A stretch of 63,494 nt of DNA, counting the filler, from Neolecta irregularis DAH-3 (Eukaryota), in NCBI GenBank assembly GCA_001929475.1. It is 14 parts of 14 records of this genome, joined end to end, with 100 filler letters (N's around TTAATTAATTAA, not from the genome) between each part and the next. Parts side by side here need not be neighbours in the genome. Positions count along the whole stretch, not along the records: positions 7,750 to 29,080 come from LXFE01000587.1; 13 more parts are not named here. One strand, given 5' to 3'. Shown piece by piece: positions 8,185-15,012 of this stretch. Every line of letters starts with the position of its first letter. Positions within the stretch are counted from its first letter, which is position 1. The notes beneath the pieces are model-generated. The model was not told the origin of the DNA. It did no database searches and was given only the letters and a program-made list of their open reading frames with translations. A program made the translations under genes and the position numbers.

Positions 8185-11100
8185 ATGGGCCGCCTCCTCC
8201 ACCTGGAGCTGTCAAACTTCAAGTCCTACTGCGGCCACCAGACTGTCGGCCCCTTTTGCTGCTTCACAAGCATCATCGGCCCCAATGGCGCCGGCAAGTC
8301 CAATCTCATGGACGCCATCTCCTTTGTCCTCGGCATAAAGTCCTCCCATCTGCGCTCCTCCCACCTGAAGGATCTCATATACCGCCCCCCCGCTGGCTCC
8401 AGCTGCCCCCCTCCAGCCTCCGCCTGGGTCATGGCCGTCTACCAGAACGACGACGGCCTGCAAATCCACTACAAGCGCACGGACGGCCCCCAGACTCGCC
8501 CCGCTTATACCTAGAATTACCCATCCTGGCTCCTGCGAATATCGCATCGACAATGCCCTCGTGTCCGCCGCCCAGTACAACCAGGCGCTCGAGTCGCACA
8601 ACATCCTCATCAAGGCCAGGAATTTCCTCGTCTTCCAGGTATCCCCCCTGGTTCGCTCCCCTGACCTCCAAGGGCGACGTCGAAACAATCGCATCGCAAT
8701 CGCCCAAAGATCTCACAAAGCTGATTGAACAAATCAGCGGGTACTCAACAGCGCGGCCCCGCTGACTTCCAGCTCGCTCGAATACAAGCCCGAGTACGAC
8801 AAATTAAAAATAGATCACGAGAAAGCCGCTCAAGCCCTGGCTAGATCCTTTCACGAAAGAAGAGGCGTAAACGCTGAAGTGAAGCAGTACCAGGAACAAA
8901 AAATTGAAGCAGAAACCTATGCTACAAAACTAGACAAAAGGGTTTGCATCCCTCGTGGAGTCGCTGACTGCAGGACGATGCTGTCGTCACCCACATCCTG
9001 TGGAAACTCTACCATCTCCAGGCCAAAATAGATGCCAGTCGGAATGAATCCAAGCACGATCAACTCGCGCTGCTCAACAATCAAATTCAAGAGCACGACC
9101 TCAACTTGGACGAGGCCAGAAAGATGCAATCAAAATTGAACAAGAATATCATGAAGCAAGAACGGGTCATCAAACGAAAGGAAAAAACACTCCAAGACAA
9201 GCTGCCCGCTGTTATCGCTATCGACGAGAAAATATCGCTCGAAGGAATCAAGCTCAAAAAATATCTGCTGCGAATTGAAAGCATAAAAACAAATAGACAG
9301 GCGCTTGTCCTTCAAGATCTGCAAACCCAGCTTCTTGTAGTTGAAAAAGCGGCAAAGAAATTCGACGATGAACAGGCCGCCCTCGCCAGAAAGAAGGGAA
9401 CGGTGCTGTCAGACCACGATTTACAAGAGTACAGAAGTTTGACCAATGACCTGTCTAAAGAGGCTGCAAGCGAGAAAGCCCGTCTTACCCAGTTGCTACG
9501 ACAGCAAAAGACCGAGCAAGAGAACCTGAAAAATCTACAAGGGAAATTGGAGCAGCTTGAATGGCAAGCAAACAGGCTCTTGGAAAAAGATCTGGCTAGC
9601 CGCAGAGACCAGGTACAATCTCGAGGGAATATCGCTAACTCAGATAAACGAGCAAGTCGTCGACCTCAATACTGCTATCGACAACAAGAAGACGAGCCTT
9701 CAAGACGCATCGTCAGAGCGTATCCGTATTTCACTGAAAGAAACAGATCTGAACGAGAGATTGCAAATATGCGCCAATCAGCTGCTACAAGTAAACGCCG
9801 ACCAGCGCGAGAGCGAAAAGCAAGTTCGACTCAAAGACACCGTCCTGTCGCTTAAACGCATCTTTCCCGGCGTTAAAGGCCGCATCGTCGACTTGTGCAG
9901 TCCATCACAGAGACGATATGACGCTGCTATCGGCATAATCCTCGGTCGAAACGCCGATGCTATCGTCGTCGAGACAGAAACAGTTGCAAAGGAATGCATC
10001 GAATATCTTCGAGACCAGAAATCACAGCCCCGCACATTTATCCCGTTGGACGCTATCCAAACTAAACCCATTAATCCTGCTTTTCGCGGTATCCACAGGC
10101 AAGCACAAATGGCAATTGATATTCTTCGCTACGAGACGTGCTGGGAAAAGGCTATGCATTATGCCTGTGGCAATGCTATCGTCTGCGATGACTCTGAAAT
10201 TGCAAAACACCTCGCTTACGAAAAGAAGATCGACGTGAAAAGTATATGATTGTTACTTGGCGCTGACTCTAGTCGTTACACTCGACGGAACCGTCTTTCA
10301 TAAAACCGGTATGATTACAGGTGGACGTTCAGAACATTCAAGTCACCGGAGATGGGAAGACCAGGAAGTCGCAGGTACCTTCTTTCGAAAATCTTCTCAT
10401 TTCAGGTCTCCAAAGACTGAAAGAATCTCTTGTCGCTGAACTGGCCGAGTTGCAAAGAACCAAGAAAAGTTGTGTTGTCGAGGATTCGTTGAAAACCGAC
10501 TTGGGCAACCTTCAGATTCGACTGTCTGCACTACTGGAGAAACTGGTATCTTTCTAGTACTTCAATTGCTGAGTCAGAATGATACTGAACTGAATCTTGC
10601 GAAAAATCAGGCCGAGTTGGATCTGGTTCAACGGCAAATTGCAGAAATGACACCAAACCTGGATAGCCAAAGAGTTTCTCATGCTACCTTGACTGAACAA
10701 ATTGAAAAGCTGCAAGAAACCGTCAATGTCATCCAAGACCGAATATTCGCCCCGTTCTCGCAAAAGATTGGAGTGAATAATATCAGAGAATATGAAGGGC
10801 AGCAAGGAAAACTGCAACAAGAGGCGGCGGAACAGAGGTTGCAGTACGTTACACAACTTGGAAAATTGCAAAACCAGTATAGCACCGACCTATCAAATCT
10901 GACTTTAAGAATAGAGTTTGAAAGCAGTCGGCTAAAGGATTGCGATGAACGACTTGAACGTCTGACCGAGTTGATGCAACGAGATAACAGCGCTATCGAA
11001 GGACTCGCGCGCCAGCGAGAAATCCTATCAACGCAAATGGATCAACTTGAAGCCGAACTCGAAATCCTGAGACAAATTCTTGCATCCAAGAGGGGTGAAT

Positions 11101-12377: not shown

Positions 12378-15012
12378 ATGGATTTCGATGCTATGGAAGA
12401 GCAAGATGGTATACTCTTTGAGTATTCCTGATTGATTAAAGGCGTTCGCCTAAGTTGGAATGTATGGCCTTCAACTCGCCTAGAGGCCTCACGGACTGTT
12501 GTTCCCATCGCCGCATTGTATACACCGCTGAAAGAGCGAGACGATATTCCACCCGTTCAATATGAACCAATTGCCTGCAAACAGCCGTGTAGAGCTGTCC
12601 TCAATCCATTCTGGTACAATCCTCACCTGCAGACATTAATGAAAGTTCTGTCGATATGAGAGCAAAACTCTGGATATGTATTTAACCAGATATGCGTTTC
12701 TCTGACTGCAAGGCCCTTTTTGTCTTCAGAGAAATCAAATGCCCCCACATTATAAAGATATATCTCCAAGCAGCTTGCCAATGGAATTACTGCCAAAGTT
12801 CACAACGATCGAATATACACTAGGCCGGCCTCTCCAAGTACCGCCAATCTTTGTGTTTGTTGTAGATACTTGTCAAGATGAAGAAAACCTCGAAGCTCTT
12901 CGTGATTCCTTGATCGTCAGTATGAGCTTGCTCCCGCCTAATGCTCTTGTTGGGTTGATTACTTACGGCACAATGGTATAATGTCATTTCGAAATATATT
13001 GATTCAGACTCAAATCCACGAAATAGGATATACAGAGTGTGCTAAATCCTATGTTTTTCAAGGTAAAAAGAATTACACGGCCAAGCGAGTGCAGGATATG
13101 CTTGGAATCCTACCGGCAAATATGCGTCCTCAACAACCTTCTGGTGGTCCTCAAAGACCATCTGGTGTCGCAGCGAGGTACTATTTACCAATTTTCAATT
13201 CTAATCCCAGATTTCTCCTTCCTGTCTCCCAATGCGAATTCCAGTTGACATCGGTCCTCGAACAATTACAGAAAGATCCATGGTCTGTGGCAAGTGACAA
13301 AAGGCCAACTCGGTGCACTGGCGCGGCGTTAAGTGTCGCTGTCAGTCTTCTAGAGGTTTTCTTCTTGGCCGTTCGTTCTCACATATAGACCGCTTTTCCT
13401 GGAGCAGGTGCTCGAATTATGCTGTTCGCAGGTGGTCCTGCTACAGAGGGGCCAGGAAGTGTTGTGAGCATCGAACTCAAGGAGCCAATTCGATCTCACC
13501 ACGACATCGAAAAAGACAATATCAAATATTACAAGAAGGCTGTCAAGGTTTGTTTACTCTTGTCAGATTTAAACGACTAGTTTTACGAAAATCTCGCAAA
13601 AAGAGCTTCTACTAATGGTCATGTGGTGGACATCTTTGCCGCTTGCCTCGATCAAACTGGGATGTTGGAAATGAAGTCTCTGTCCAATATGACTGGCGGG
13701 GCTCTCATACTGTCGGATGCCTTTACAACCTCGATTTATAAACAAAGTTTTCAGAGAATGTTCAATAAAGATGCTCAGGGTCATTTGCAAATGGGCTTTA
13801 ATGCTTCAATGGATGTCTTGGTACTTTTGATCATAGCACACTCATTAACTATCAAGACTACCAAAGAACTGCGAGTTTCCGGACTTATCGGTCACGCTGT
13901 TTCTCTAAACAAAAAGACTCCAATGGTTGGAGAAACAGAAATTGGTGTCGGCGGAACATGCGCATGGAAGATGTGCGGGATTACACCGAGATGCTCATAC
14001 GGAGTTTATTTCGAAGTTGCCTCACAAACAGGTCAACAGGAAGGCCCAGGTCAAGGCCAAAGTCAAAAAGGCCTGATCCAGTTCTTGTTGCAGTATCAGC
14101 ATTCTTCCGGAGTATTCAGACTTCGAGTTACTACGATCTGTCGAGCCTTCATGCCTGGTGGTCACGAAGCGATTGCCCAATCTTTTGACCAGGAAACCGC
14201 AGCTGTCTTGATGGCTCGCATCGCTGTCTTCAAGGCCGAGATCGATGATGGTCCTGATGTCCTGAGATGGACTGATCGGATGTTGATTCGACTGTGCGCC
14301 AAGTTTGGGCAATATGGAAAGGACGACATTGCATCTTTCCGGTTGGCACCCAATTTCACTATTTATCCCCAATTCATGTTCCACCTAAGACGAAGCCAGT
14401 TTCTTCAAGTATTCAACAATTCTCCTGATGAAACTGCCTTTTATCGGCATGTCTTAAACCGGGAGAATGTCAATAACTCGCTCACTATGATCCAACCAAC
14501 TCTGACCTCGTTTACATTCGATAAACCACCAGAACCAGTCTTGCTTGATTCTGTTTCGATCAAGCCAGACGCGATTTTACTTCTTGACACATTTTTCCAT
14601 ATTCTTATCTTTCATGGAGAAACAATTGCACAATGGCGGAAAGCTGGATATCAGGATCAAGAAGGATATCAAAATTTCAAGGAACTTTTGGAAGCACCAC
14701 GAGCTGATGCGGGTGTATGCCTCACTTGTTTGTGCTAATGTATTAATTTCAAGGAACTTTTGGTTGACCGATGGCCAATCCCTCGATATATAGTATGTGA
14801 CAGTGGCGGCTCTCAGGCTCGATTCCTGCTCAGCAAACTGAATCCAAGTACGACTCATATGAGCGGAAACATGTATGGCGGGCCTCAAGGGGCAGCCATC
14901 TTTACTGATGACGTCTCCTTGCAGACGTTTATGGAACATCTCAAAAAGTACCGTCCACCTTACCCATTGGCATAACCATTCTAGATTAGCAGTATCCGGA
15001 GCAAGCAGCTAG
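12378..15012 (+). CDS. SEC23: COPII coat protein Sec23, multi-exon
   Basis: [11 protein letters not shown], zinc finger [75 protein letters not shown]. Confidence 0.97.

Follow-up and report, generated by a model that had tools for sequence, protein, structure and literature searches.

Compact U2-type introns of 31–41 nucleotides with weak donor signals in genes of Neolecta irregularis

The filamentous fungus Neolecta belongs to the Taphrinomycotina, as do the fission yeasts and Pneumocystis, a subphylum distinct from that of the Pezizomycotina moulds. Lim et al (2021; PMC8476143) cite Cryptococcus, with a mean of 63 base pairs (bp), as an example of short fungal introns, and a preprint of 2024 (bioRxiv 10.1101/2024.12.05.626984) ascribes to Cryptococcus neoformans the highest proportion of introns that are short or ultra-short (<60 nucleotides, nt) among the fungi that it studied. 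Lineages with short introns are reported to tend towards degenerate splice signals (PMC2483917), and Schizosaccharomyces pombe reporters are described as splicing with 9–21 nt between branch point and 3′ splice site, a distance of 6 nt still supporting growth in wild type (Anil et al, 2022, PMC9508853). Here we describe the introns in a stretch of 63,494 nt from Neolecta irregularis DAH-3 (GCA_001929475.1), called the window throughout, with emphasis on two neighbouring genes at positions 8185–15012, which encode the cohesin subunit SMC1 and the COPII GTPase activator SEC23. An earlier note on this DNA had set its short introns against those of filamentous ascomycetes; that comparison was misplaced, because Neolecta belongs to the Taphrinomycotina and its relatives Pneumocystis and Schizosaccharomyces are already short-introned.

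For N. irregularis, the supplementary table of Lim et al (PMC8476143) lists 19,467 introns with a total length of 806,929 nt, corresponding to a mean of 41.45 nt. This is the lowest mean of the nine fungal rows that we compared, the others being Pneumocystis carinii (48.5 nt), Protomyces (64.1 nt), C. neoformans (67.3 nt), C. gattii (69.1 nt), S. octosporus (73.8 nt), Taphrina (78.7 nt), Saitoella (82.7 nt) and S. pombe (88.5 nt). The numbers underlying our observations are already present in the public annotation and in this table, where they stand unremarked. Cisse et al (2021; PMC7940399) report 4202 Neolecta introns in an orthologue set, about 26% of them gained independently; the passage that gives this count does not address their size. 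The word “intron” is absent from the main text and one supplement of the N. irregularis genome paper (PMC5309816). We found no published description of the size or the signals of Neolecta introns in a search outside which lay PDF supplements and subscription journals, so that a mention there is possible.

We interpret the introns of the window as ordinary U2-type GT-AG introns that have been compacted to the smallest size the Neolecta spliceosome tolerates, and we put the probability of this interpretation at roughly 80%. It describes an extreme value on a known axis, that of short fungal introns with degenerate signals, and it needs no new biology.

Junctions were established with a spliced protein-to-DNA aligner (BLOSUM62; three phases; GT-AG, GC-AG or AT-AC introns of 20–150 nt; no length preference) guided by homologous proteins: six full-length ones each for SMC1 and SEC23, seven for the protein O-mannosyltransferase PMT4 and eight for a CCR4-like nuclease. 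After removal of 14 introns, the SMC1 gene (8185–12256, plus strand, 15 exons) has a complete and uninterrupted open reading frame (ORF) of 1203 amino acids (aa) with a single terminal stop. Its product matches the Pfam families SMC_N and SMC_hinge, Pneumocystis SMC1 aligns to residues 1–1197 of it, and the hinge exon finds as its top match a “partial” SMC1 of N. irregularis DAH-3 (100% over 79% of the query; next match 54%). The SEC23 gene (12378–15012, plus strand, 11 exons, 10 introns) likewise gives a complete ORF of 763 aa with one terminal stop and Pfam Sec23 domains. Saitoella SEC23 aligns to its residues 1–761, the model is 98.9% identical to the public N. irregularis SEC23, and the top database match of the largest exon is SEC23 of N. 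irregularis DAH-3 (96% identity), followed by that of Saitoella (76%). Support by four to six of the six guides was obtained for 23 of the 24 introns in these two genes. Judging from the restored reading frames and the colinearity with homologues, these segments would be removed from the mRNA.

Together with six introns of PMT4 and four of the CCR4-like gene, the 14 SMC1 and 10 SEC23 introns form the set of 34 homology-verified introns on which our statistics are based. Their lengths are 31–41 nt (median 33, mean 34.8, standard deviation 3.2), and 31 of the 34 are shorter than 40 nt. Exons measure 24–639 nt in SMC1 and 28–858 nt in SEC23. As expected under intron definition, the introns are far shorter than the neighbouring exons, and their signals all fit into a stretch that a single complex could span. 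The earlier note had put all 14 SMC1 introns at 31–34 nt, which is true of 13; the first is 40 nt long and has a GC donor. The eight SMC1 introns that it listed by coordinate (introns 2–7, 12 and 14 in our numbering) proved exact, all being GT..AG segments of 31–34 nt recovered by spliced alignment with the six guides. Its range of 32–39 nt for SEC23 was borne out as well (32, 32, 33, 33, 33, 33, 35, 36, 37 and 39 nt; 4–6/6 guides each), as was its observation of similarly short introns elsewhere in the window (PMT4, 33–41 nt; CCR4-like gene, 35–38 nt; three introns supported by Pfam, 35–37 nt). Median lengths differ between genes (SMC1 32.5 and SEC23 33 nt versus PMT4 39 and CCR4-like 38 nt; Mann–Whitney P = 0.0004, 24 versus 10 introns), which could come from expression level, local composition or intron age. 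With a minimum of 31 nt and a median of 33 nt, the set does not match the class with modal lengths below about 30 nt (ciliates, dicyemids and myxozoans).

A check that made no use of splice signals gave the same size range. For this, 355 stop-to-stop ORFs of at least 60 aa were compared with Pfam, and intron size was estimated by subtracting three times the gap in the profile from the gap in the DNA. The estimates at nine junctions are 32–41 nt, namely 32, 39 and 33 nt at three SEC23 junctions (true values 32, 33 and 33 nt), 39, 41 and 38 nt in PMT4, 33 and 35 nt in a HAD-hydrolase gene and 35 nt in a Glyco_transf_15 gene. At the HAD and Glyco_transf_15 junctions, the frame-compatible GT..AG segments measure 37, 35 and 35 nt.

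The 24 introns of SMC1 and SEC23 lie in phases 0, 1 and 2 in numbers of 13, 4 and 7. Paramecium-type introns avoid lengths that are a multiple of three without an in-frame stop. Among the 24 introns, 10 have lengths that are multiples of three, four of these 10 being without an in-frame stop, and no ciliate-like avoidance of silent retention was seen in them.

With respect to splice signals, the 34 introns have 33 GT donors, one GC donor and 34 AG acceptors. The donor can be summarised as (A)G|GTA(Y), with G at −1 in 21/34, A at +3 in 27/34 and a pyrimidine at +4 in 30/34 introns (T 19, C 11, A 4, G 0). The donor consensus for U1 and U6 at +3 to +6 is that of GTRAGT. In the window, +5 (A 12, C 6, G 10, T 6) carries 0.00 bits and +6 carries −0.06 bits, the frequency of G at +5 being 29% (95% interval 15–47%). 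Donors match CAG|GTAAGT at a mean of 5.0 of nine positions, compared with 3.8 for a random GT site. The claim that donors share little beyond GT(A) is thus correct for +5 and +6 but overlooks the preferences at −1, +3 and +4. The acceptors are TAG (12), CAG (11), AAG (10) and GAG (1), so that AAG is frequent, as had been claimed, and GAG is not.

In all 34 introns, the branch-like motif with the highest score carries T at −2 and A at 0; the majority of these inferred motifs fit YTRAY (C or T at −3 in 32/34 and at +1 in 30/34). The inferred branch A lies 5–11 nt from the 3′ end of the intron (7.26 ± 1.33, mode 7–8) and 23–33 nt from the 5′ end (27.5 ± 2.6, mode 25–27), and variation in intron length comes mostly from the 5′ segment (r = 0.91). 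Because only 3–9 nt separate the inferred branch A from the AG, a classical pyrimidine tract would not fit. When defined as in the S. pombe study (PMC9508853), a pyrimidine tract is found between branch and AG in 2/34 introns, and upstream of the branch in 23/34, compared with 15.1 ± 2.9 expected from composition. The earlier note had remarked both on the missing polypyrimidine tract and on a branch-like motif a few nucleotides before the AG, and on these points we agree with it. In four introns (11313–11345, 11667–11697, 27881–27913 and 28233–28271), an AG located 3–4 nt after the inferred branch A is skipped and the next one, at 6–7 nt, is used, which points to a minimum branch-to-AG distance of about 5 nt. 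Whichever AG comes first at 5 nt or more past the inferred branch A serves as the acceptor.

The spacing of these elements is more specific than the motifs. We defined a spaced pattern consisting of GT (or GTA), a YTRAY whose A is at intron position 23–33, and the first AG 5–11 nt later. In the four verified genes, the GTA version recovers 21 of the 34 true introns with no other match on the sense strand and three on the antisense strand, compared with 3.5 in shuffled sequence. The GT version recovers 25/34 with eight other sense matches, 23 antisense matches and 16.4 in shuffles. Spacing can therefore supply much of the specificity, since the GTA pattern finds 21 introns and nothing else in sense. 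We also scanned both strands of the whole window with the GTA pattern, disregarding ORFs, leaving the distance from 5′ splice site to branch free between 15 and 80 nt and keeping branch-to-AG at 5–11 nt. With the branch A at 23–33, there are 93 matches compared with 52.3 in dinucleotide shuffles (Poisson P = 2e-7), an excess of about 41 sites, of which 21 are verified introns. No excess is seen at 15–22 (37 versus 37.5) or 34–44 (50 versus 51.9), and the classes 45–60 (88 versus 74.4) and 61–80 (104 versus 94.0) leave 23–33 as the sole strong excess, from which it follows that a short class starting sharply at position 24 dominates the window. The proposal in the earlier note that length or geometry defines these introns hence gains from the uninformative +5 and +6 positions and from the specificity of the spaced GTA pattern, but is limited by the preferences that the donor keeps at −1, +3 and +4.

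Approaches based on codon usage or motif scores performed poorly. A gene finder using codon usage and a flat prior on intron length recovered 15 or 5 of 24 known introns, fusing SMC1 with SEC23 and skipping exons; with cheaper introns and a limit of 120 nt it ran through intergenic DNA and predicted 298–419 “introns”; and with a hard signal threshold it found 11/34 verified introns among 23 in total, compared with nine in a decoy run, which was too strict to be used for counts. Codon bias is too weak for this approach, and the finder was rejected. When the best GT..AG was taken for each ORF pair (up to 300 nt), or all pairs were scanned for signals, the scores of real sequence and complement decoy overlapped, and motif scores alone can therefore not find these introns. 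The median leave-one-gene-out signal score is 9.6 nats, and the GT and AG themselves contribute about 5.6 of these. After removal of the training introns, the signal scan leaves a modest excess at 36–41 nt. At a junction of the HAD-hydrolase gene, ranking by signal score selected a spurious “intron” of 41 nt that lies within the conserved GDRLDTD motif, and Pfam and protein context gave the correct one of 35 nt; for this reason only junctions backed by homology or Pfam were trusted.

As to mechanism, the two ends of such an intron would be paired across the intron (intron definition), and tight spacing of donor, branch and AG might compensate in specificity for the weak motifs. In intron definition, splice-site pairing depends on intron length, and experimental lengthening of an intron impairs its splicing; the specificity of the spaced pattern and its window-wide enrichment at a single spacing lend this indirect support. 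Steric constraints, on co-occupancy by U1 and U2 and on delivery of the AG to the active site, could account for the lower size limit. The YTRAY motif is complementary to the branch-binding region of U2, the A selected here being the putative branch point.

Seven of the SMC1 introns, all on the plus strand, are supported by all six guides: intron 2 (8639–8672, 34 nt, GTATCC..CTGAC..AAG), intron 3 (8741–8772, 32 nt), intron 4 (8942–8973, 32 nt), intron 8 (10546–10577, 32 nt), intron 9 (10877–10909, 33 nt, AAG acceptor), intron 11 (11430–11463, 34 nt) and intron 13 (11825–11857, 33 nt). Introns 5 (9613–9643), 6 (10242–10272) and 7 (10375–10405, branch CTCAT) each measure 31 nt and are supported by 5/6 guides. 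Introns 10 (11313–11345, 33 nt) and 12 (11667–11697, 31 nt), in which an AG 4 and 3 nt past the branch A, respectively, is skipped, have the support of 4/6 guides. Intron 1 (8475–8514, 40 nt, phase 2, 6/6 guides) is atypical in its GC-AG ends (donor GCGCAC) and its weak branch motif, GCTTATA being a poor match. No GT occurs between about 8440 and 8563 around this donor, and the same intron is apparently present in the public N. irregularis model; the GC might conceivably be a base error in both assemblies.

The start of SMC1 lies in a G+C-rich island (7750–8973). The G+C content is 0.68 in 7750–8184 and 0.56 in the first SMC1 exons and introns, compared with 0.45 in the remainder of the gene. 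The introns that lie within it share the high G+C content, so that the shift in composition does not depend on coding. Tandem repeats occupy the region between the upstream ORF and the SMC1 start, with CCGCGA repeated five times at 7958–7989 and a unit of 23/37 nt repeated 3–4.6 times at 8040–8160.

The SEC23 introns, also on the plus strand, include five with AAG acceptors, namely intron 1 (12409–12441, 33 nt), intron 3 (12678–12712, 35 nt), intron 8 (13821–13856, 36 nt) and intron 9 (14715–14753, 39 nt) with 6/6 guides and intron 2 (12614–12645, 32 nt) with 5/6. Six guides also support intron 4 (12976–13007, 32 nt), across which positions 53 and 54 of Pfam Sec23_trunk abut; intron 5 (13178–13210, 33 nt), a multiple of three without an in-frame stop; intron 6 (13356–13388, 33 nt), with a GTTTTC donor and a CTCAC branch; and intron 7 (13548–13580, 33 nt), across which Pfam coordinates are continuous. 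Intron 10 (14948–14984, 37 nt) is supported by 4/6 guides.

The PMT4 gene was located on the minus strand at 26364–28904 by spliced alignment and by matches to Pfam PMT, MIR and PMT_4TMC; its top match is N. irregularis PMT4 (97%), the next being at about 62%. Its introns include 28616–28656 (41 nt, 7/7 guides), 28540–28578 (39 nt, GTGAGT donor, 6/7), 28233–28271 (39 nt, AAG acceptor, AG 4 nt past the branch A skipped, 7/7), 28017–28057 (41 nt, 7/7) and 26762–26799 (38 nt, 5/7), and for the last three the Pfam estimates of 39, 41 and 38 nt equal the aligned lengths. Three further candidates with one of seven guides each, 28785–28823 (39 nt, GAG acceptor), 26762–26847 (86 nt) and 26762–26790 (29 nt), were dropped. 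In the CCR4-like nuclease gene, likewise on the minus strand, the introns are 18293–18327 (35 nt, GAG acceptor, 5/8 guides), 18013–18050 (38 nt, AAG acceptor, 7/8), 17820–17857 (38 nt, AAG acceptor, 8/8) and 17095–17132 (38 nt, 6/8). Here 22 candidates of 20–148 nt with one or two of eight guides, mostly in the unconserved N-terminal part, were discarded.

Three more introns were placed with the help of Pfam. In the HAD-hydrolase gene (minus strand), 16477–16513 (37 nt, GTTGAT donor) is frame-compatible at a junction indicated by Pfam, where Hydrolase_6 gives an estimate of about 33 nt and four other short candidates fall in upstream coding sequence. The second, 15852–15886 (35 nt, GTGCGG donor), joins ..GDRLDTDIL to FAKNS.. 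and agrees with the 35 nt estimated from Hydrolase_like. In the Glyco_transf_15 gene, 41714–41748 (plus strand, 35 nt, GTACGG donor) is a frame-compatible candidate with a Pfam estimate of 35 nt. Unverified short candidates were kept out of all statistics; these are of 36, 37 and 33 nt in an Mcp5 gene and 50, 37 and 39 nt in a symplekin gene, 51142–51181 (40 nt), 36096–36130 (35 nt), an MscS candidate of 37 or 67 nt, and 60135–60178, for which the alternatives are 44 nt (GC donor) and 23 nt.

How much more than compaction is needed can be argued. A bolder conception, which we regard as tentative and rather unlikely, is that Neolecta splices in a ruler-like manner at the physical floor for a cross-intron complex of two small nuclear ribonucleoproteins. 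Of the donor, nothing beyond G|GUA(Y) would be recognised; a branch would be accepted only about 24–33 nt downstream, and the first AG located 5 nt or more past the branch would then be taken, whichever base precedes it. Such a mechanism would call for co-evolved changes, which might affect the U1 5′ end or U1C, contacts of the U6 ACAGAGA box, SF1/U2AF or Slu7/Prp18.

Also improbable in our view, and somewhat more so, is a modified Neolecta spliceosome, in which the U1 5′ end or the U6 ACAGAGA box is altered, or U2AF, Slu7 or Prp18 is lost or changed, and introns are measured by a ruler and not by pairing at +4 to +6. Such a machine would account for +5 and +6 at 0 bits with G at +5 in only 10/34 donors, for AAG acceptors about as common as CAG and TAG (10, 11 and 12 of 34) and for the 3–9 nt between branch A and AG, with a pyrimidine tract there in 2/34 introns. 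In C. neoformans, introns shorter than 40 nt are few and the worst spliced according to the preprint (bioRxiv 10.1101/2024.12.05.626984), so that a machine with a norm of 31–41 nt may differ. However, the termini, the branch motif and the choice of AG are canonical in the window, and the even shorter introns of myxozoans and Stentor are reported to go with conventional U2, U2AF1 and U2AF2 (PMC13644364). Degenerate signals are moreover described as a general trend in short-intron lineages, and short fixed branch-to-AG distances are on record as well (PMC2483917). The U2-type termini and branch being canonical, the introns do not imply a modified spliceosome as the earlier note had concluded. 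The window offers no information on snRNAs (small nuclear RNAs) or factors, and a search of the window for snRNAs or other RNA families gave no Rfam match.

Very improbable is the reading of the short introns as an artefact of model building, in which the shortest frame-restoring GT..AG was chosen and the true junctions are different or longer. The aligner, which admits 20–150 nt and penalises all lengths alike, did produce scattered candidates of 24–148 nt in weakly conserved regions, each with one or two of eight guides, and the NCBI model of N. irregularis SMC1 has five different junctions. Most junctions, however, are shared by five to eight independent guides whose alignments are continuous across them; the Pfam coordinates, for which splice signals are unused, agree on 32–41 nt at nine junctions; the published annotation has a mean of 41.45 nt (PMC8476143); and the scan with free spacing peaks only at branch positions 23–33. 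The public SMC1 protein (P0121) is 92.9% identical to our homology-based model, with six gaps, and the five junctions specific to it (9726–9759, 10235–10272, 10309–10342, 10368–10405 and 11680–11716, plus strand) are without backing from the five other guides, two of them being extra “introns” within exons. These junctions are probably annotation errors caused by the tiny introns.

For U12-type introns the consensus is an RTATCCTT donor and a TCCTTAAC branch. That the introns are of this or another class (introner-like repeats or non-spliceosomal insertions) is scarcely credible, since the sole donor resembling a U12-type start, GTATCC at 8639 (1/34), has no following TT and no TCCTTAAC-type branch and is otherwise not U12-like, the GT-AG ends and YTRAY branch fit the U2 type, and a search for introner-like copies among the 34 introns of this window gave a best pairwise interior identity of 0.676 compared with 0.660 ± 0.011 in shuffles.

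Several points weigh against ordinary compaction as we propose it. The sample comprises 34 introns (plus the three supported by Pfam) from four to six genes in one window of 63 kb (kilobases); the junctions are based on protein homology and reading frames rather than on transcripts; and the branch points are choices of a weight matrix, not mapped lariats, a procedure that in part predetermines T at −2 and the A. The published N. irregularis mean of 41.5 nt exceeds the window mean of 34.8 nt. A minority of longer introns may exist in the window. In the symplekin/Pta1 gene, the sole short frame-compatible candidate at 23915–23964 (plus strand) measures 50 nt, and at 24139–24355 (plus strand) about 89 nt are unaccounted for by the Pfam profile, which is possibly two introns and a small exon; if the window has introns outside the 31–41 nt class, these two junctions are the likeliest sites. 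The weakest support in the verified set is that of SMC1 intron 14 (12200–12232, plus strand, 33 nt, GTAAGA donor), which is backed by one of six guides, the N. irregularis model. The other five alignments stop just before it, and its removal yields the complete ORF, ending ..LDLRKYDTI*, an SMC1-like C-terminus. For the PMT4 intron at 27881–27913 (minus strand, 33 nt, 4/7 guides), an alternative of 39 nt with a GC donor has 3/7 guides. The shortfall of decoy patterns on the sense strand has an uncorrected P of 0.02–0.03 and is only suggestive of selection against cryptic introns. Finally, it is on grounds of parsimony that we see no need for altered snRNAs or for the loss of factors.

The window has several further features. 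Its 1174 N's lie in 29 runs across 2442–59373, made up of 13 pairs of 44-N runs split by exactly 12 readable bases (e.g. 2442–2485 and 2498–2541, or 7650–7693 and 7706–7749) and three 10-N runs (6183–6192, 33635–33644 and 44440–44449), and have the look of masking or scaffolding rather than of biology. Two remnants of long terminal repeat (LTR) retrotransposons, each adjoining an N pair, were identified on the plus strand, one at 6628–7308 with an ORF for a retroviral-type aspartyl protease (RVP_2) and one at 42805–44166 with an ORF containing Retrotrans_gag, zf-CCHC and Ty3_capsid. An isolated ORF of 96 aa at 40696–40983 (minus strand) matches positions 344–391 only of the cytochrome P450 profile; it could represent a fragment of a gene, or a single exon if the gene is split into many small ones. 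Few ORFs above 100 aa and few Pfam matches (DUF676, DAGK_cat) occur in 44500–59000, where the gene finders gave no model; genes divided into numerous small exons, or repeats in decay, could lie in this region.

The compact introns have practical and conceptual consequences. Genes of this genome will be mis-called when the minimum intron length is left at its default or the donor model was trained on GTRNGT; in the public SMC1 model, five junctions already differ from the homology consensus. Neolecta serves as a “living fossil”, slow in its evolution, in reconstructions of ancestral intron content; in both size and signal, its introns are remote from the ancestral state. With a mean of about 41 nt, below the other fungal rows compared in the published table, a mode near 33 nt in the window, a readable branch motif and about three introns per kb, Neolecta is a natural test case for the minimum distances from 5′ splice site to branch and from branch to AG, and for specificity from spacing alone. 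Should the ruler-like conception be true, this free-living, multicellular fungus with culturable tissue would be the most compact natural system for studying the minimum size of conventional introns.

Among known systems, the short introns of S. pombe and other Taphrinomycotina are alike in subphylum, in GT-AG ends, in a CURAY-type branch near the 3′ splice site and in a pyrimidine tract that is minimal or absent downstream of the branch. Donors of S. pombe follow the consensus GTANGT, in which +5 is G, whereas +5 is uninformative in the Neolecta window. The introns of S. pombe are also longer, with a mean of 88.5 nt compared with 41.5 nt genome-wide and 34.8 nt in the window for Neolecta (PMC8476143). 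Pneumocystis shares with Neolecta an intron-rich genome within the Taphrinomycotina and very short introns (3.5 introns/kb in P. carinii and 2.9 in Neolecta according to the same table), but the P. carinii mean of 48.5 nt is about 7 nt longer (PMC8476143). Debaryomyces hansenii, in which 65% of introns are reported to have a branch-to-AG distance of 6–8 nt (PMC2483917), resembles the Neolecta window with its 5–11 nt and mode of 7–8; such budding yeasts are intron-poor with strong motifs and longer introns, whereas Neolecta is intron-rich with weak motifs. C. neoformans is intron-rich too, its class of 40–60 nt is described as best spliced, and the same question of U1/U2 steric limits was raised for it (bioRxiv 10.1101/2024.12.05.626984); its mean is about 67 nt, however, and introns below 40 nt are few and poorly spliced, compared with 31/34 here (PMC8476143; bioRxiv 10.1101/2024.12.05.626984). 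The introns of less than 30 nt in ciliates, dicyemids, myxozoans and microsporidia are similar in their narrow sizes at a lower limit, missing or minimal pyrimidine tract and conserved A residues near the AG (PMC13644364). Unlike these introns, which measure 15–27 nt and are reported mostly from parasites and ciliates (PMC13644364), those of Neolecta measure 31–41 nt, have a clear YTRAY and belong to a free-living multicellular fungus.

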